Of a DNA stretch of 64,000 nt, positions 15,812 through 30,265 are shown piece by piece. Made by a program: the position numbers and the translations under genes. Source of the stretch: an uncultured Pseudomonadota bacterium (lineage in GTDB: Bacteria; Pseudomonadota; Alphaproteobacteria; Rs-D84); the NCBI GenBank assembly GCA_902793435.1, contig CADBDF010000003.1:26167-90166 (forward strand), given 5' to 3'. The notes below the pieces were generated by a model. It ran no database searches and was not told the DNA's origin. It worked only from the letters and a program-made list of their open reading frames with translations. Every line of letters begins with the position of its first letter. The first letter of the stretch is position 1.

Positions 15812-15901
15812 GGATGGTTGGCAGAGCGGTCGAATGCGACGGTCTTGAAAACCGCTGACGGGGTAACTCGTCCGGGGGTTCGAATCCCTCACCATCCGCC
15901 A
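15812..15901 (+). tRNA. tRNA-Ser (anticodon UGA)
   Basis: 90 nt. Acceptor GGATGGT/ACCATCC, anticodon loop CTTGAAA, long variable arm (TGACGGGGTAACTCGTCC), T-loop TTCGAAT, encoded CCA. Closely parallels E. coli serT. Confidence 0.95.
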
Positions 15902-16183
15902 GTATTCTGGCATGTATGCCGATACAGATGAAACGCCCGCGGTTCTGCGGGATTTTTCATACATTGACTTCGGTATGGGCGAAAATTGCCCTTTTTTACG
16001 CCATAATATCCTGCTTCCTATACACCCCCCATTTTCCGATAGTCAATACCTTGAAAAATAGCCAGAAAACCCTATATAAACACCGTAATAAAATTATAAA
16101 ACACAGGAGAAAAAATCGCTTTTTTTCATTGAAAACACAAGGTTTTTGTATTACATTTTTCATGAAAATTTATGAGGACAATT

Positions 16184-19733: not shown

Positions 19734-21362
19734 TTAACATCCATAAAACGCAGATTCTTGTTTATCAAAATCTGCGTATTTTTGTGCGATACCGAACAAG
19801 GTTTGCAGGTTCACGTGTGCAGGTACTTCGCCTTCCAGTATGTCGCCAATTATTTTAGGTGACAGGTATGCCAGGTTCATGTATTTATATACCGTTCTAT
19901 CGGCACGATGTTCTGTGCGTTTAATCTGGTCAACCGGAACACCGGCTTCGTATTGCTTTTTATATTTCCATCCGAATGCCAGTGCCTTGGTCAATATCTG
20001 TGCGTTTTCTGTTTTTGTATGTATTGATACTTCGCCACCATCACATCGGTGGTTTATACAGGTTCGCGTATTCACATAGAACTGTGTTTCCACAACCGCA
20101 TATTTACCATCGTTGGTTATATACATATGCATAGGTTCTACTTTTGAATTTATGGTGTCTGTTTTGAATTGTTCCAGATAACCCATGTCGTCAATCTTGA
20201 TGAATATTGCCAGGGCATTTTTGTTAAACACTATTTTATCAACCATTTGTTGCATCAATTCGTCTGAATAACAAGTTTGTTTGAATTCTAATCGCTTGGC
20301 TTCCGGTATAGCAATCATATCAGAATCCAAGAATCTTTTTATCGTATCTGTAACAATCTGTTCCACATCGCCAGCCGGTAATGATATTTTATCGGCTTTG
20401 TAATAGCGGTATTTTTTCAATCTGTTATCTTTGTTGCTTTGTTGGTTCTTGAATATCTGGCCATCCGGTGTTTGTATCTTATTATGCAACAATGATTTAC
20501 CGATGGTGTAACCCGCATTTTTGTGATTGTTGCCATCGTGCAGTTTCTGTTGCACATCGTTAAATAATTTTTCATCAAGTATCGCTTCATGCAATCCGTT
20601 AAATGTCTCTTTGCTTCGCTTGTTTGCAATCTTGCCAATATATACCGGATTTTTCAGGATTCTGTCCAATGAACTGGTGGCTATGATTGTACCACCTTTT
20701 TGTTGGCCTTTGTTGGTTGTCCATGTCTTTCCGCGTATTCCCATATCAATCAGTCGCAAGCGGCAATCTGACATACCAGTACTTATCATATATGTATTAA
20801 ATATCCGGCGGACTGTTTCGGCTTCGGTTTCATTTACCACCAACTTCCCATCGATAACATCGTACCCAAGCGGTGGTATTCCACCAATCCACATCCCCTT
20901 TGCTTTTGTGGCACGGATTTTATCACGCACACGTTCCCCAGACACTTCGCGTTCAAATTCTGCGAACGATAGTAGCATGTTCAGGGTTAGTTTGCCCATG
21001 GCAGTGCTAGTATCGAATGATTGCGTTATGCTGACCAGATTGCAGTTATGTGGTTCAAAATCTTCCTTCATCATGCGTTTAAAGTCATATATGCTACGCG
21101 ACAATCTGTCGATTTTATAAACCAGAACACATTGTATTCGACCAGCTTTGATATCGGCCAGCATTTCCTGTAAACCTGGACGGGCCATCGTTCCGCCAGA
21201 AATCGCCGCATCACTGTAAGTCTTGTAATATTGCCAACCATTAAACGATTGGGAAGCAATATACGCTTTACAAGACTCTTCTTGGTTTTGCAGAGAATTA
21301 AACTCCTGTTCCAATCCATGTTCAGTTGATTTACGCGTATAAATAGCACATCTAATCGTCAT
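19734..21362 (-). CDS. large serine recombinase
   Basis: 542 aa. N-terminal resolvase catalytic domain (CAIYTRKSTEHGLEQEFNSLQNQ, VLVYKIDRLSRS), a recombinase domain (GGIPPLGYD) and a long C-terminal extension. Confidence 0.9.
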   Translation of the reverse strand: MTIRCAIYTRKSTEHGLEQEFNSLQNQEESCKAYIASQSFNGWQYYKTYSDAAISGGTMARPGLQEMLADIKAGRIQCVLVYKIDRLSRSIYDFKRMMKEDFEPHNCNLVSITQSFDTSTAMGKLTLNMLLSFAEFEREVSGERVRDKIRATKAKGMWIGGIPPLGYDVIDGKLVVNETEAETVRRIFNTYMISTGMSDCRLRLIDMGIRGKTWTTNKGQQKGGTIIATSSLDRILKNPVYIGKIANKRSKETFNGLHEAILDEKLFNDVQQKLHDGNNHKNAGYTIGKSLLHNKIQTPDGQIFKNQQSNKDNRLKKYRYYKADKISLPAGDVEQIVTDTIKRFLDSDMIAIPEAKRLEFKQTCYSDELMQQMVDKIVFNKNALAIFIKIDDMGYLEQFKTDTINSKVEPMHMYITNDGKYAVVETQFYVNTRTCINHRCDGGEVSIHTKTENAQILTKALAFGWKYKKQYEAGVPVDQIKRTEHRADRTVYKYMNLAYLSPKIIGDILEGEVPAHVNLQTLFGIAQKYADFDKQESAFYGC

Positions 21363-21792
21363 GTTTTTTCCTTTTGTTTATACCAAAGAAGAAATTACCA
21401 GACATTTTCATGCCTGCGATTTTAGTTGCAACTGCCGACAATGTTGAATATTTGTCACCGTTATATGAAAAACTGCCATCATCATTGACTAAGATGGTGT
21501 ATTTTATACCCTTGAAATATCGGGTTAAAATTGTGCCTGGGACAAAGTTATATTTATTTGGACATGCATGGTCTAAACATTGTTCTGGATTATCCTTGTA
21601 TTTTCGAATTTTTACCAAATATTTATGTTCAATTCGTAGGTTTAAGCGATCACATTGAATATAATACCAAAGCGACCGCAGTTGCCTTTTAAATGGATAT
21701 TGTGAGTATTTTGCCCATAATCGAACTCGTTCATCAAAAGACAATGCTTTCAACTCATCCATCGTCTTTGGCATGTTATCTTTATATGACAT
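21352..21792 (-). CDS. DUF2924-family protein (usual upstream partner of large serine recombinases)
   Basis: 146 aa. GTILTRYFKGIKYTILVNDDGSFSYNGDKYSTLSAVATKIAGMKMSGNFFFG matches the DUF2924 C-terminal pattern. Overlaps the recombinase gene by 11 nt. Confidence 0.7.
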   Translation of the reverse strand: MSYKDNMPKTMDELKALSFDERVRLWAKYSQYPFKRQLRSLWYYIQCDRLNLRIEHKYLVKIRKYKDNPEQCLDHACPNKYNFVPGTILTRYFKGIKYTILVNDDGSFSYNGDKYSTLSAVATKIAGMKMSGNFFFGINKRKKHDD

Positions 21793-21941
21793 ATCGGCTC
21801 CTTTATAACGTCACGCAATTACCGCTCTAAAGTTGCCGAAAGTCAAGTTAATAAGCCCCTTGTTTTTTATTTTACAAAAATATTTATGTATGATACTATA
21901 CAAGAAAGCGATAAAAATATTAATATAAAGGCTTTGACATT

Positions 21942-22814
21942 ATGGATTATGAAAATATTTTCAAGGATTTTTTGGATTTAATTTATCACAATGACATTTT
22001 GCCAAATGAAATTGTTTGTGTTTTAGAAAAATATAGCAAAAACAGAGATTTTCGGTTAATTTGTGATTTATTGTATTATAAAGAGAAGTATTGTAAAACT
22101 GCTGGCGATCCAAGGACACAACAATTTTATACGGAATTGACTATGCATGCTCGCGCTTTACAGGACATCAATATTTGGCGAGACGCAATGTCGTTAAATA
22201 ATTTAAGCTATTTGAAAGCCGCTCTTAATAATGACGCTCATAATGATACTCATAGGTCGGATCCTGCAATTATTAAACCGATGATGCAACAATTGATAAG
22301 GGCAGCCAACTTAAAACCTGATGGATATCTCATTAATAATATCGATAAAAAATATACGCAAAACACTACAAATCTAAACTCAGATAAAATACTTACACTA
22401 GATAATTTAAAAATTGGTGATGAAGTAGATCATCATTTTTTACGTGATCATTTTAAAATCAATATTCAACGAGGTATGCACTTTAAACAAAAGATAATTT
22501 TAATATCTAAATTTTCTGCTTATGCGGATGAAGAAAGAGACGGCATATTACATTATTTGGGACATAATATTGTAAACGATCATGGAGGTAAATTTAATCA
22601 AACACGAACCGGAGAGAATGAGAGATTTTGTGATGCGATTGATAATTTTAAAAAGGGCGGCCAGGTTTCGTATTTTAAAATTTTTCAAAAAAGAAACAAA
22701 TGGATGTACAAAGGAGAATACGCTCTGATAGATTATAATTATACAGGTTCTAAAAATCCAAATGATATAAATTCTGATAGAAAAGTATATGAATTCTTAT
22801 TACGAAAAAAATAG
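21942..22814 (+). CDS. hypothetical protein; C-terminal half possibly an SRA/PUA-like modified-base reader
   Basis: 290 aa. GILHYLGHNIVNDHGGKFNQTRTGENERFCDAIDNFKKGGQVSYFKIFQKRNKWMYKGEYALIDY loosely follows the Y.G.GG...Q.l..gN.al...g.pv.vf.....y.Y.G.Y pattern of SRA-type readers. Weak call. Confidence 0.3.
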   Translation: MDYENIFKDFLDLIYHNDILPNEIVCVLEKYSKNRDFRLICDLLYYKEKYCKTAGDPRTQQFYTELTMHARALQDINIWRDAMSLNNLSYLKAALNNDAHNDTHRSDPAIIKPMMQQLIRAANLKPDGYLINNIDKKYTQNTTNLNSDKILTLDNLKIGDEVDHHFLRDHFKINIQRGMHFKQKIILISKFSAYADEERDGILHYLGHNIVNDHGGKFNQTRTGENERFCDAIDNFKKGGQVSYFKIFQKRNKWMYKGEYALIDYNYTGSKNPNDINSDRKVYEFLLRKK

Positions 22815-22823
22815 GCAATTTGA

Positions 22824-24107
22824 ATGAAGTTGCAAGAAAAATTAAATAATATTTCAAAAACATCAAAATTATCTTTATTGAAAGACGGCCGGTCGGTTGA
22901 TTTGGATGAGTTTTGGACCACATTTATAGAACCTTTTCTTCCGCCCAAAAAAGCAGTTGAGGGTTGGCATAAAATTTTGAAGAAATATATAAACGAAAAA
23001 AATGCTATTTTTTCGATACGGAAGTTTGGTAGTTATCGTGATAACAAAACAAAAGATCGCAAAACGTTGAGGCGCGGGTTCCTTAACCTAACAAATCTTG
23101 GTATTAACGCATTTTTTATTGATAATTTTTTTACATCGTATTTCTTTTCAATGGCTTATGATGGTTATGTGCCTGATTATAATGATTTCAAAGAAATGAT
23201 GCTCTCTAGAAAATTTCCGTGTGGCTATATTGTTACCAAAACAGAAACTGCACTCGCCGCATTTCATAAAGGAAAAGATCCACGTATTCAATATAAAGGT
23301 TATAAAATAGCACATATTCATGACGCTGGTCGTGATTTTAATATATCAAATATCAAGACAGTTGGTGATTTTTGTAAATTGTTTTTCCCATTAGGAGAAT
23401 ATGATGATTGGAAAGCCATAAAAAAAGATAAAAATGGACCTTATCACTATAGAAATTTATCGATAAAAAAAGACGACCAAAAACTTGTAAAACAGTTTCT
23501 GGTTGCGCATTTTTTACGAACGGTTCATCCCATAAATTATTTCTTGGTTCCTAAACAATTTTGTATTTCCTTTGTTAATGATAAGGGTGAAACCAAATAC
23601 GAAATTGGCGAATACGAACCCCTTATTAAATATGTAAGACAAAAAATCAAACAACGATACGGTGCAATTTATAATCAATATCTTGCATTAATTAAACGTA
23701 TCGATGACGAACAAACAGAGCAAGAAAACATTATTATAAATGCGGTTTATGGTTTAAATGGTTTTAGAAAAAACAAATCTAAAAAAACAACAAAAAAAAT
23801 TAAAACATTGAAAAAATCTAGCGGTTCATCAGGCATAGGGAAAATTGTACGAGAAACACTAATTCCTGGTCTGAACAAAATTCCGTCGGCAGAGATCAAA
23901 AAACTGCAAACTAAACAGTATTCCAAGAATACTTTTGATATAAATTATCCTCTTTTATCTAAAAATAGATTTGATAGCAATGGTCGTCCACGTTATTACG
24001 CTACACCAATACGAATTAATGGTGCTGATTGGTATGTTTGTCAGGAATGGTATGCCAGATGTGAACCCAAATTAAGGGTATGGTTAGCATTACATAACAT
24101 AGGTTAA
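22824..24107 (+). CDS. hypothetical protein; possible His-Me finger (HNH-like) nuclease
   Basis: 427 aa, starting 10 nt after the previous gene. KIAHIHDAGRDFNISNIKTV and LVAHFLRTVHPINYFLVP resemble H-N-H cores lacking Cys ligands. Has a Lys-rich linker and a C-terminal RPRYYATPIRINGADWYVCQEWY module. Weak call. Confidence 0.3.
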   Translation: MKLQEKLNNISKTSKLSLLKDGRSVDLDEFWTTFIEPFLPPKKAVEGWHKILKKYINEKNAIFSIRKFGSYRDNKTKDRKTLRRGFLNLTNLGINAFFIDNFFTSYFFSMAYDGYVPDYNDFKEMMLSRKFPCGYIVTKTETALAAFHKGKDPRIQYKGYKIAHIHDAGRDFNISNIKTVGDFCKLFFPLGEYDDWKAIKKDKNGPYHYRNLSIKKDDQKLVKQFLVAHFLRTVHPINYFLVPKQFCISFVNDKGETKYEIGEYEPLIKYVRQKIKQRYGAIYNQYLALIKRIDDEQTEQENIIINAVYGLNGFRKNKSKKTTKKIKTLKKSSGSSGIGKIVRETLIPGLNKIPSAEIKKLQTKQYSKNTFDINYPLLSKNRFDSNGRPRYYATPIRINGADWYVCQEWYARCEPKLRVWLALHNIG

Positions 24108-24121
24108 CTAATATAATATTA

Positions 24122-24694
24122 TCAGTTGTATTCGCTTGCTAATTTGGTGAAAAAGCATTCGTCGTGGTATATGCCGTCGGGCGTCAATAAATATTGGCGG
24201 TTTATTCCATCAAGGTGATAGCCTGATTTAATTATAGAATTATATGAACGGATGTTGTCTTTGATACATTGGCGGCATATTCTGTTCGCCCCCAGTTGTT
24301 CAAAGGCGATTTTTTCTATTGTTCTGTGGATTTCTTGATTAAACCCGTTTCCCCAGTATTTTCGCGCCAACCAAACAGATGAACATTCAAGTGTTTTATT
24401 ATCCGGACAATAATATATTCTTTGATAGCCAATTAGTTCATTATTAAAAAACACAAACCAATCTATCCCCCTGTTTTGACAACGATTATGATAATATTGC
24501 ATTACATGCAATGTGTCTTCTTGTGATGTTGGTAAAATACTTTCCAGTCTTGAAGAATAAATAAAATCATCTGGATTTTCATTTTTTAATACGTTCCACA
24601 CTAATAGTGCATTTTCTTCATTTGGTTCAAGAATACGCATTTCCAAACGCTCTGTTTTTATATTATGACCAAATAACTCAAAAAACTTTTCCAT
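24122..24694 (-). CDS. GNAT-family N-acetyltransferase (RimJ/RimL-like)
   Basis: 190 aa. WGNGFNQEIHRTIEKIAFEQLGANRICRQCIKDNIRSYNSIIKSGY fits the acetyl-CoA-binding core of the Acetyltransf_3 type. Confidence 0.7.
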   Translation of the reverse strand: MEKFFELFGHNIKTERLEMRILEPNEENALLVWNVLKNENPDDFIYSSRLESILPTSQEDTLHVMQYYHNRCQNRGIDWFVFFNNELIGYQRIYYCPDNKTLECSSVWLARKYWGNGFNQEIHRTIEKIAFEQLGANRICRQCIKDNIRSYNSIIKSGYHLDGINRQYLLTPDGIYHDECFFTKLASEYN

Positions 24695-25082: not shown

Positions 25083-26552
25083 TTATTTGTTCGTATAGGT
25101 AAATATTACATCCAACAATCGAACCATTGCCAAGGTATCTTGCCCGCAATATTCACGCAGATTTTTCATCATTTCTTCTGTTTCCTGTGGCGTTTGATTT
25201 CTGTTCATAAAATCTAAAAATTGGCTGCTGGCTTCTGTTCCGTTATGAATCCCCAGGGTTTCATAGGACAATTCCGGAACAAACGTGGGCAATGTTTTTT
25301 TGATTGATACACTACCGTTTTGACAAGGACAATACAGACCACGATTTTTAAATGGTTCTTCTAAATCTAAAATGCGTTCATTTATTGATGATAGTTTTTT
25401 GGCAAACTCTGGAAAATCAAAAGCCATTTCACAGTTACGGCCTTTTTCAAATGTTTTGTGATAGACGACTACTGAACCCGTATCACCGATTACATCACAT
25501 AACTTTTTCAATAGTCCTGGTCTAGGGTCTGTTTCTGGGTTGTCGTGTAAATATTCATAATGTTCCAATTTGCCGCCAGGCGTCCTTTGCACATGTAATG
25601 AAAATTGAAAACAAATTTGTTGATAGGCGTGCGAATTATCAAATATCGGCACCGCCGACATAATTGTTTCATAATCAAGAAAGTATAAAGGCCATTGCAA
25701 ATTATTCGTAAATTGTTTCAAGATGTTTAGATTGATTACATCTATATTATCTAAAAACGCTTCTATATCCCCGGAATGCTGTTGTTTATAGTAAATATCG
25801 ACAGGAACATTATGCAAATCAGCACCATATTTTGCATAAATTTCGTCTGCCAATTTTCCTTTGAATGCATCAAAAACTGAATACTGTGGCAAATCTTTCC
25901 AACAATGACATTTATATTCGCATTTATAGAATTTATTGTTACATTTCGTCTTAGAAATAGCGATGCCAAGTTCTGGACCAGACAGAAATGCGCGTATACG
26001 ATTTATTTCCGATTGCACCGTTTCCATATCTTGCATTTTACCGGCTACATCGTGCAAAGCGAACAACTGTGCCAAATCTAAATCACCATGGCGAATATAT
26101 TCTTTATTTAGTGTCATTACAAAGCAATTACGAACCTTGATTCCACAGTGGTTTAATACATACCTCTGAAAAGAAACATCTAAATAGTGATATTCATGTG
26201 GTTCTGGATTCGATTTTACCTCTATAATATCCCATGTTCCGTCATTGTTGTTTTGTAAAATATCAACAGCACAATATTCATCAGTATCGGTGCAAAATGT
26301 CGCTTCATAGATGTATGACGCATTTTGTGTGATGGCTTTTTGGGTTTGTTCTATGGCTTCTGGTTCCCAAGGCTTTGCAGTGATGCGAACGCCTCCAGGG
26401 AATCTGTCACATGCTAATTCACCAACAGCAGTTCCAGCATCCAATATTGCTTGATTTTTGTCGGATTCTATATCTTTACGATATTTTTTGAACCACAACG
26501 CATTCGGGCATTTAATTCCAGTTACATAATCAGACTTTGATATTTTTATCAT
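25083..26552 (-). CDS. DUF2779-family protein (Cas4/PD-(D/E)xK-like N-terminal nuclease plus C-terminal domain)
   Basis: 489 aa. The N-terminus MIKISKSDYVTGIKCPNALWFKKY is the characteristic DUF2779 start. DIIEVKS fits a PD-(D/E)xK core. Cys cluster CNNKFYKCEYKCHC. Confidence 0.6.
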   Translation of the reverse strand: MIKISKSDYVTGIKCPNALWFKKYRKDIESDKNQAILDAGTAVGELACDRFPGGVRITAKPWEPEAIEQTQKAITQNASYIYEATFCTDTDEYCAVDILQNNNDGTWDIIEVKSNPEPHEYHYLDVSFQRYVLNHCGIKVRNCFVMTLNKEYIRHGDLDLAQLFALHDVAGKMQDMETVQSEINRIRAFLSGPELGIAISKTKCNNKFYKCEYKCHCWKDLPQYSVFDAFKGKLADEIYAKYGADLHNVPVDIYYKQQHSGDIEAFLDNIDVINLNILKQFTNNLQWPLYFLDYETIMSAVPIFDNSHAYQQICFQFSLHVQRTPGGKLEHYEYLHDNPETDPRPGLLKKLCDVIGDTGSVVVYHKTFEKGRNCEMAFDFPEFAKKLSSINERILDLEEPFKNRGLYCPCQNGSVSIKKTLPTFVPELSYETLGIHNGTEASSQFLDFMNRNQTPQETEEMMKNLREYCGQDTLAMVRLLDVIFTYTNK

Positions 26553-26563
26553 AATGATTCCGT

Positions 26564-27250
26564 TTATTTTATCTCCAGTTTAATACCTGTTATTCCTTTT
26601 TCACGCCAATTTCCTAAATACCCGGTGTGCAAATTACCGCTTAAACTGGAAGTTGGTTTAAAATTGTTAACTTGCCATACATGTTGGGTTGCTGATTTAT
26701 TCGTATAAAACAAAGTAACAAAAACCGTGCATATGGAGGTGTCGCGCAGATGTTTTTCAAATTCTTTACCAGAACATTCGCGACCGTGTAAAAAGTATTT
26801 TTTGTCTAGAGCTGTTGATTCATGAACATTTTTTATACTGGCCGTTTTTGTTGTGTGTGTTCGTTTTTTTGCATTTTTGATGCTTTCTGCCTTGTATACA
26901 AAAAAACTTTCATCTATTTTGCCATCATCGTATTTTCTGTGGCATTCTTCACATAAAAAATGAAAATTTGCAAGATCCTTTGAAAAATTTACAAAAGATT
27001 CTTCGAATCTATCTAAATCGACATGACAAATATCTCCTTCTTTTGAATATGTTGATTCTTCAAAAAAGTTTCTTACTAAATCCTTTCTTTCAAAGCCATG
27101 TTTGTGTGCGGATTGAATTTCTTTTTCTTTTGTACCACAACATGCACAAATACCAGATTTATATTTTTGTGTTAAATCTCGTGTTTTATTACGTGCATAT
27201 CCATCAAAAAATTTTTTAAACGTTTTATAATCACCTACGAACATATTCAT
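26564..27250 (-). CDS. HNH-motif endonuclease-like protein with an unknown C-terminal domain
   Basis: 228 aa with ICACCGTKEKEIQSAHKHG and FHFLCEECHRKYD (CxxC...H...CxxCH). Confidence 0.55.
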   Translation of the reverse strand: MNMFVGDYKTFKKFFDGYARNKTRDLTQKYKSGICACCGTKEKEIQSAHKHGFERKDLVRNFFEESTYSKEGDICHVDLDRFEESFVNFSKDLANFHFLCEECHRKYDDGKIDESFFVYKAESIKNAKKRTHTTKTASIKNVHESTALDKKYFLHGRECSGKEFEKHLRDTSICTVFVTLFYTNKSATQHVWQVNNFKPTSSLSGNLHTGYLGNWREKGITGIKLEIK

Positions 27251-30245: not shown

Positions 30246-30265
30246 AATCCCTCACCATCCGCCAG
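30246..30265 (+). repeat. right-hand direct repeat of the tRNA-Ser 3' end
   Basis: aatccctcaccatccgccag is identical to 15883-15902. Confidence 0.9.

Follow-up and report, generated by a model that had tools for sequence, protein, structure and literature searches.

Domains of the SRA fold recognise 5-methyl- or 5-hydroxymethyl-cytosine by flipping it out, and enzymes based on this fold are useful reagents in 5mC/5hmC mapping. The type IV enzymes of this class, such as TagI, ScoMcrA (SRA plus HNH), MspJI and AspBHI (SRA-like plus PD-(D/E)XK) and SauUSI, unite reader and nuclease in a single chain, the nuclease being recognisable as an HNH, PD-(D/E)XK or PLD domain. In McrBC the reading and cleaving subunits (the reader/motor McrB and the nuclease McrC) come from adjacent co-transcribed genes, an arrangement that we tentatively propose also for the gene pair described here. 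This pair, A and B, was found in a window of 64,000 nucleotides (the whole stretch of DNA that was analysed) from a gut bacterium with a 0.9-Mb genome, where it sits within a 14.4-kb tRNA-Ser island (ARAGORN and repeat search):

15812-15901, tRNA-Ser (ARAGORN)
15883..15902, plus strand, left 20-bp direct repeat at the tRNA-Ser 3' end, the left island boundary (repeat family D2)
19734-21362, minus strand, large serine recombinase gene (Pfam)
21352-21792, minus strand, DUF2924 gene (Pfam)
21871..21899, plus strand, promoter-like site upstream of ORF A, TTTACA-17-TACTAT with TG (consensus scan)
21942..22814, plus strand, ORF A (290 aa), helical N-module, linker and SRA domain
22824..24107, plus strand, ORF B (427 aa), B-core, disordered basic linker and tail-1
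30246..30265, plus strand, right 20-bp direct repeat, the right island boundary (repeat family D2)

The two repeat copies are 100% identical. Other defence-type genes on the island encode TPR-GreAB-C-PIN, IetA-like AAA+, HNH and Cas4-like DUF2779 proteins. No methyltransferase gene adjoins the pair (ORF list and Pfam), and a search of the whole 0.9-Mb host genome with PF00145, which covers C5 cytosine methyltransferases, gave no match (a control search was positive in 9 of 14 genomes). Since the host has no C5 cytosine methyltransferase of this family, its own DNA would be spared by the pair.

Both ORFs start with ATG and lie exactly where the preliminary description of this DNA had placed them, and every peptide it cited can be found: HYLGHN...WMYKGEYALIDY at residues 204-265 of ORF A, and KIAHIHDAGRDFNISNIKTV (161-180), VAHFLRTVHPINYFLVP (227-243) and RPRYYATPIRINGADWYVCQEWY (386-408) in ORF B. 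The genes are indeed co-oriented and close, although the gap between them is 9 nt (GCAATTTGA) and not 10, and they diverge, as was claimed, from the recombinase and DUF2924 genes across an intergenic region of 149 nt. The promoter-like site in this region is a consensus-scan match, and such matches are not evidence of function; a sequence scan found no terminator-like site between A and B. Judged from the sequence, the layout (9-nt gap, terminator-free, promoter-like site upstream) appears operon-like. Copies in other samples are near-identical (99% for P0001, 98% for P0056). In a sister sample with a reduced copy of the island (L048) the two genes overlap by 4 nt, the pair is intact at 98.2% identity and the divergent promoter-like region is kept at 98% (homology block 21728-24461), with the adjacent recombinase, DUF2924 and GNAT genes decayed. 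Given these near-identical copies, the homologous clusters of B (about 55) and the homologues for both modules of A, we take A and B to be real genes.

The proteins divide into the following modules, of which two are missing from a natural allele:

21942..22361, plus strand, N-module of ORF A, aa 1-140 (family alignment, AF2 secondary structure)
22389..22811, plus strand, SRA domain of ORF A, aa ~150-290 (Foldseek, Pfam SAD_SRA matches of the family, SUVH9 alignment)
22824..23759, plus strand, B-core, aa 1-312, alpha/beta (family alignment, model)
23832..24104, plus strand, tail-1 of ORF B, aa 337-427, three short helices, a beta-hairpin and a helix (model)
22354..23810, plus strand, segment (SRA of A plus B-core) absent from the natural in-frame deletion allele P0040

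An SRA-type reader had been suspected in the C-terminal half of ORF A, and both structure and family evidence bear this out. When the predicted structure of aa ~150-290 (AF2, pLDDT mostly 77-94) is compared with the PDB using Foldseek, SRA domains fill the first 24 ranks without exception (the top 22 with probability 1.00), among them ScoMcrA (7.5e-6) and the SRA of SUVH5 (1.3e-5, target TM 0.65), next to TagI, MspJI, AspBHI, UHRF2 and SauUSI; five of these (ScoMcrA, TagI, MspJI, AspBHI and SauUSI) are type IV enzymes. ORF A itself does not match Pfam SAD_SRA (PF02182) at E<=1. Its sequence membership is transitive, since 5 of 9 members of its C-module family do match, with E down to 1.2e-6 (the homologue P0069 scores 35.9 bits at a cut-off of 30.7). 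ORF A also aligns in register with the SRA of SUVH9: AY195-A-D197, H-Y205-LGHN, Q220...N226 and W-x-YKG-x-Y fall on the SRA motifs GYxDD/YTGxGG/DQ..GN/YDG. The C-terminal domain of ORF A is thus a genuine SRA domain. We predict that it is a base-flipping reader of the 5mC/5hmC type, with Y195/D197, Y205, Q220, N226 and Y257-K-G as candidate pocket residues (of these, the first Tyr/Asp pair varies within the family).

The N-module of ORF A has eight predicted helices (AF2) and the invariant residues D36-F37-R38, W79, N96 and H100 (family alignment). No relatives are found in Pfam or by sequence and profile searches of the PDB, and the N-terminal regions of other SRA proteins are unrelated. An assignment to HEPN (N-x3-H) was rejected, the Arg of the Rx4-6H motif not being conserved in the family alignment. 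Both modules of ORF A have separate homologues; the N-module family counts about 10 clusters and is fused elsewhere to HNH plus tail-1 (P0054/55), to HNH plus an X domain (P0059/65) or to the X domain alone (P0061/68).

The family of ORF B is rare and scattered horizontally, and the predicted fold of the protein has no solved relatives. The family is unannotated, with about 60 clusters in at least 7 phyla, from gut and rumen MAGs, and only 24 loci among 185,579 species genomes. Its architecture consists of an invariant-rich core of ~310 aa followed by exchangeable C-terminal tails. About twenty residues of the core are invariant: R66, R83-R84-G85, D100-N101, P132, E141, G159-x-K161-x-A163-H164, F230, R232, P236, N238-Y239, P243, I261 and E263. 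The model of ORF B is confident (pLDDT 90 overall, mostly >90 in B-core). Searches of Pfam, NCBIfam, PADLOC and PHROGs give no matches for A, B, the N-module or B-core, nor for any of 35 B-family members, and PDB sequence searches (with the single sequence and with the B-family profile) find nothing significant. The earlier impression that neither protein fits a nameable family therefore stands at the sequence level (family libraries and PDB sequences). In Foldseek the best matches of the B model to PDB and BFVD have E-values of 3.0 and 1.1 with TM <=0.11; scattered HNH and homing-endonuclease names among the BFVD matches were rejected as noise-level. When distant annotated relatives were sought with a profile, only the same family came back.

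Known enzyme classes were also compared with B-core by eye, using the invariant residues and the predicted secondary structure. Spacing and conservation appear to misfit PD-(D/E)XK, PLD (HxK), HUH and GIY-YIG nucleases, and likewise UDG, ADP-ribosyltransferase (H-Y-E) and tyrosine recombinase (HxxR...Y). CMoRE (PMC12923530), the END nucleases (PMC12191111) and DUF2779 (PMC13621843) were considered as relatives of B and are unrelated.

The tails point to a wider network. Tail-1 (invariant I-G, F, P-L, R-Y-Y, C-x-E-W and W-L) forms a family of ~13 clusters, and its profile finds no relative among PDB sequences. It is also C-terminal in the N-module plus HNH proteins P0054/55 and in the coiled-coil protein P0053, and is probably a DNA-binding or targeting module. 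In P0054/P0055 N-module, HNH and tail-1 stand in one chain; this tail-1 is 47% identical to that of B, and the preceding HNH domain (Pfam-confirmed) is 34% identical to HNH228, an HNH protein of the window. The second tail of the B family, tail-2, matches residues 161-226 of HNH228 (HMM, 21.4-23.8 bits). In other proteins both tails follow bona fide HNH domains, so that B-core takes the place of a nuclease within a common modular plan. The two modules of A are promiscuous, as are the two tails of B. The deletion allele P0040, present on 6 contigs, encodes 234 aa (A 1-137 joined to B ~331-427) with a 7-nt overlap at the junction. Since it removes exactly the SRA and B-core, this module is dispensable, which weighs against the reading preferred below.

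Our preferred reading, which we put forward as possible and hold tentatively, is that A and B, on their tRNA-Ser integrative island, form a defence module that is modification-dependent (type IV-like), co-transcribed and specific to this lineage. The SRA of A would locate phage or plasmid DNA with modified cytosines, and B would act on the DNA so located while host DNA is spared. B-core would be the effector, an enzyme that most likely cleaves DNA or damages it in another way. Cooperation of the two proteins is suggested by P0054/P0055, where N-module and tail-1 flank an HNH domain within one chain: the window pair would follow this plan, with 'SRA / B-core' in place of 'HNH' and the whole divided between two genes. 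For the N-module and B-core no nuclease family or fold was matched in family libraries, PDB searches, Foldseek or hhalign, so that the activity proposed for B-core draws purely on architectural analogy. The preliminary description had suggested a split type IV-like system. The reader and the absence of a cognate methyltransferase agree with this, but a recognisable nuclease and co-occurrence of the subunits do not appear. The idea is partly rescued by the finding that the N-module of A and tail-1 of B flank HNH in a single polypeptide.

Co-occurrence across genomes had been named as a test, and here the outcome was negative: the pairing is confined to the window genome and near-identical strains (L048). 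At 29 other B loci the modules of A are absent (tblastn and HMM), and among 200 genomes of the same order no further one has both A and B. Clustering of the neighbours at 27 loci gave no recurrent partner of B, merely small synteny groups in related Clostridia, plus four loci in which guaA lies upstream. Where neighbours are annotated, B homologues mostly stand alone amid housekeeping genes (guaA, ABC transporters), with no obvious defence islands, and A-type proteins are solitary too (the relatives P0059, P0060 and P0055 have no B-like neighbour). As B functions without A elsewhere, A is best understood as an extra subunit for specificity or recruitment and not as an obligatory partner.

The same observations lend weight to the thought that two independent single-gene functions merely abut in a patchwork island, with incidental co-transcription. 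B would then be a self-sufficient effector, found solitary across phyla, and A a separate SRA protein whose output comes from its own N-module or which has none; the meeting of N-module and tail-1 in P0054/55 would reflect a shared module pool recombining in these genomes, which suits the promiscuity of the modules and the unrelated cassettes on the island. We regard this as only slightly less likely than the preferred reading. Against it, the 9-nt gap (or 4-nt overlap) is terminator-free, L048 keeps the pair together and intact where the flanks have decayed, and it seems unlikely to be chance that two small and rare families, N-module and tail-1, come together in this pair as well as in a single polypeptide.

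A more specific form of the preferred defence reading, which we consider rather unlikely as it stands, holds that B-core is a new-fold DNA-targeting effector, a so far undescribed class of nuclease that is interchangeable with HNH ahead of these small targeting tails, and that the separate SRA subunit aims it at DNA with modified cytosines through docking of N-module and tail-1. If true, the pair would be a type IV system divided between two proteins, and three of its modules (N-module, B-core and tail-1) would be ones that had not been described before.

It might also be argued that the pair, or at least B, has no part in defence, B-core being an enzyme or binding protein (an enzyme that acts on nucleotides or modifies DNA, for example) in the service of the mobile element or of host metabolism, and A a methyl-DNA-binding regulator. 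B indeed has no nuclease signature, several homologues directly follow guaA or are surrounded by housekeeping genes, and the many invariant Arg/Lys/His residues would suit nucleotide binding as well. Sporadic spread, shared tails, a defence-island context and strain-level presence/absence are typical of defence genes, and each of these is seen here: the family is rare and extremely scattered, its exchangeable tails are common to HNH nucleases, the island holds other defence-type genes, and close strains differ in presence/absence and carry deletion alleles. This makes a non-defence role improbable in our view.

The suggestion that ORF B is a His-Me finger nuclease is not supported. Such an HNH-type enzyme having lost its Cys ligands, with H164 at the end of a beta-strand as general base, N238 as structural Asn and E263/H235 as metal ligand, would fit the position of B-core in the shared architecture, the likeness of 'KIAH' to 'AAH' and of 'PINYFLVP' to 'NFHFLCxxCH' in the tail-sharing HNH domains (read from the sequences), and the model, where H164 closes strand 160-164 before a second strand and a helix, but it is very improbable given an hhalign probability of 0.2% for B-core against a Pfam-verified HNH alignment, no Pfam HNH match in 35 family members, no Foldseek match to HNH proteins above noise, no conserved metal ligand (Asn/His/Asp) in the helix 180-186 after the KIAH strand/hairpin (family alignment), and a distance of 74 residues between H164 and N238 with several secondary-structure elements intervening.

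Whatever the role of A, the family of B offers a clean discovery target (pLDDT 90, no neighbour in the PDB or among predicted viral structures, tails shared with HNH proteins), and its activity, once solved, could define a new nucleic-acid enzyme fold. The network of N-module, SRA, HNH, B-core, tail-1, tail-2 and X domain shows by example how parts are combined into defence proteins, and the natural deletion allele joins the two outer ones in frame.

Compared with the known systems, the locus shares with the SRA type IV enzymes the fold of ORF A's reader, the lack of a cognate methyltransferase, a mobile/defence island and the modular logic of reader plus effector. In contrast to these enzymes, ORF A carries only a novel helical N-module besides its SRA, and the candidate effector is separate and SRA-free elsewhere. 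The eukaryotic SRA/SAD proteins (UHRF1/2, SUVH5/6/9) resemble ORF A in fold (TM 0.65 to SUVH5) and in the motifs YxD, YxGxG, Q...N and a YDG-like YKG, whereas ORF A stays below the Pfam SAD_SRA threshold that its relatives pass, and the N-terminal partners are unrelated. Unlike McrBC, the pair lacks a GTPase/AAA+ motor and a PD-(D/E)XK nuclease of the McrC type, which B-core is not, and the pairing is not conserved. The unannotated P0054/P0055, from similar small-genome gut bacteria, share the N-module of A (~33% identity) and tail-1 of B (~47%), but are single chains with a canonical CxxC...CxxCH HNH between the modules and have neither SRA nor B-core. Genes of this type are followed by a DUF2779/solo-Cas4-like gene. 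If A and B restrict modified DNA, they would represent a new type IV architecture, in which the SRA reader is a protein apart from the effector and the latter is other than HNH, PD-(D/E)XK, PLD or GIY-YIG.

ORFs A and B lie on the plus strand where the preliminary description had placed them, and all peptide motifs quoted there are present. The two are 9 nt apart, a scan of the intergenic sequence found no terminator-like site, and the layout is operon-like. The features concerned are:

21942-22814, plus strand: ORF A, 290 aa
22824-24107, plus strand: ORF B, 427 aa
21871-21899: promoter-like site, in the 149-nt region between A and the divergent DUF2924 and large serine recombinase genes
15883-15902 (3' end of tRNA-Ser) and 30246-30265: 20-bp direct repeats, a perfect match, bounding the 14.4-kb island that contains A and B

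Other genes in the island encode a TPR-GreAB-C-PIN protein, a fragment of an IetA-like AAA+ protein, an HNH protein and a DUF2779 protein resembling Cas4. The genome of the host is small, at 0.9 Mb. The most likely reading, though a tentative one, is that A and B form a co-transcribed, lineage-specific type IV-like module. Here the SRA domain of A would recognise incoming DNA by its modified cytosine, and B would supply a catalytic effector activity with DNA as its substrate, guided by its C-terminal module (tail-1). Any contact between the two proteins might run through tail-1 and the N-terminal module of A (N-module), which may couple them.

ORF A matches no family in any of the curated libraries, and searching 1.84 billion representatives exhaustively with HMMER yields 15 relatives. 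A is modular, as their alignment (A2) shows: residues 1 to ~135 also occur in proteins with different C-terminal parts, residues ~150-290 also occur behind different N-terminal parts, and one relative (P0057) has both modules. Five of the nine members of the C-module family match Pfam SAD_SRA (E down to 1.2e-6), and the C-module relative P0069 scores 35.9 bits at a cut-off of 30.7. In PDB the C-module profile reaches a single sequence, the SUVH9 SRA domain, with the alignment in register. With the AlphaFold2 model of A (mean pLDDT 77, C-domain mostly 77-94), Foldseek returns SRA domains at all ranks 1-24 (ScoMcrA, 7.5e-6; SUVH5, 1.3e-5, TM 0.65; further SUVH6/9, KRYPTONITE, TagI, MspJI, AspBHI, UHRF2 and SauUSI), and therefore the SRA/PUA-like reader proposed earlier is correct. 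PF00145, the C5 cytosine methyltransferase family, is absent from the whole genome, so a 5mC-directed system would spare its own DNA.

The N-module consists of eight helices with invariant DFR36-38, W79, N96 and H100 (alignment A4). No relatives were found in Pfam or PDB, and hhalign (0.2%) shows no relationship between it and the N-terminal region of other SRA-module proteins. In four proteins (P0059, P0061, P0065, P0068) the N-module is followed, with or without HNH, by an undescribed C-terminal 'X domain' of ~125 aa with the pattern YAS..K...YWANP...W.IILND...H.F.IPANTF...F.PYLVK.I.Y; hhalign relates it neither to SRA nor to the tails, and it is possibly another DNA-reading module. The SRA-module protein P0060 shares its locus (L034 197-2281) with a 694-aa double-AAA+ protein resembling the decayed AAA+ module of the island, suggesting that islands in related genomes are similar in content.

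Among 5.8 billion proteins, about 55-60 clusters are homologous to ORF B. None of them is annotated, and a profile search adds no more distant relatives. Scanning 185,579 species genomes gave 24 B loci, all in gut or rumen MAGs (Firmicutes, Verrucomicrobia, Bacteroidota, Fibrobacter, Treponema, Proteobacteria and Elusimicrobia). The conserved core (B-core) is ~310 aa long, and about twenty of its residues are invariant (alignment A1): R66, R83, R84, G85, D100, N101, P132, E141, G159, K161, A163, H164, F230, R232, P236, N238, Y239, P243, I261 and E263. Behind it come a disordered linker and one of several alternative C-terminal modules, among them tail-1, the beta-rich tail-2 of ~70 aa and helical tails of Phage_int_SAM_5-like type. 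B-core is unrelated by comparison to every other module found here. The family is undescribed, its fold could not be related to anything, and there is a real chance that B-core is categorically new.

The main rival, a serious possibility, is that A and B have independent single-gene functions and merely abut. It is favoured by the neighbourhoods. In the 29 loci with B homologues, tblastn with ORF A finds nothing (best E 0.22) and HMMs of the N-module and SRA-module match no ORF outside the window's lineage; clustering of neighbours across B loci reveals no recurrent partner. Where neighbours are annotated, B is usually a single gene, either surrounded by housekeeping genes or at the edge of a prophage, and relatives of A are likewise solitary. 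Among 200 genomes of the same order, two have A-module relatives, a third has a B relative and none has both. This lack of co-occurrence, named as a counter-argument in the preliminary description itself, counts against a dedicated two-gene system. In favour of the split type IV-like system proposed there speak the SRA fold, the links of N-module and tail-1 to HNH, the operon-like layout and the missing methyltransferase, but the pair is not conserved. At four loci, from Oscillospirales and an Elusimicrobiales MAG, the gene directly downstream of guaA (GMP synthase) encodes a B homologue, which could be an insertion hot-spot or coincidence:

L004/L008 920-3347
L010 4917-7317
L026 4445-7215
L047 5910-8326

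Against independent functions stands the sharing of modules. P0054/P0055 (400 aa) join in single chains an N-module (about 33% identity to that of A), an HNH domain (34% identical to the HNH protein of the island, 26564-27250, minus strand) and a tail-1 (47% identity to that of B). Although each of these two families, N-module and tail-1, has few members, they come together in this chain and again in the A-B pair. The island's HNH protein carries at its C-terminus (residues 161-226) the tail-2 module with which many B homologues end (HMM 21-24 bits, E about 1e-8 to 7e-6). Since tail-1 and tail-2 both follow HNH nucleases elsewhere, B-core would, by analogy, take the place of the nuclease in a modular scheme common to these proteins. 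The island's HNH gene is followed after 11 nt by a DUF2779/solo-Cas4-like gene (25083-26552, minus strand), as is P0055 after 4 nt in two loci (L044 7001-9671, L045 3534-6204), a recurrence that suggests a two-gene module of HNH(+tail) and DUF2779. L006 has a B homologue, two genes upstream of a DUF2779 gene.

A locus from another sample also argues against independent functions. It conserves 21728-24461 at 98.2%, within a reduced island:

L048 5880-8940: tRNA gene, about 300 bp, DUF2924 5' stub, intact A-B, GNAT 3' stub

A-B is intact directly behind the tRNA, while DUF2924 and GNAT are reduced to stubs and the recombinase and TPR-PIN genes are absent. In the window, ORF A has an A7 homopolymer at its 3' end (22803-22823), against A6 in L048 (7280-7310), because of which the latter's ORF A has 294 aa (ending …RKNRHFE) and its stop overlaps the start of B by 4 nt (ATGA); either the length truly varies here or an assembly is at fault. 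In P0040 (234 aa, 6 contigs; L031 8001-8705) the segment 22354-23810 is deleted in frame, which fuses residues 1-137 of A to residues ~331-427 of B and joins N-module to tail-1; where the two sides meet they overlap by 7 nt. P0040 is a deletion derivative, because B-core with tail-1 is the ancestral unit in distant phyla. The serine recombinase of this island copy is truncated too (272 aa). The deletion shows that the A-B module is dispensable and turning over, as is typical of defence genes; a non-defence role is rather unlikely, being less probable than either a cooperating module or independent genes.

Still further behind these two readings, and improbable, is B as a His-Me finger nuclease: its 'KIAH' and 'PINYFLVP' superficially resemble 'AAH' and 'NFHFLCxxCH' of five HNH domains sharing its tails (alignment A6; HNH confirmed by Pfam, 2e-5), but hhalign against this set gives a probability of 0.2% with no motif aligned and the helix that follows the H164 hairpin lacks a conserved metal ligand (A1), and therefore this earlier assignment is not supported.

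Regarding known systems, the B family is not covered in the work on CMoRE (PMC12923530), END nucleases (PMC12191111) or DUF2779 (PMC13621843), nor in the available text of a screen for PUA-nuclease fusions (PMC6765204). ORF A belongs to a class already known from type IV systems, that of SRA-domain proteins, and represents a new architecture within it. The SRA domain is biology as expected; it is the B family and the network of modules that merit experiments.
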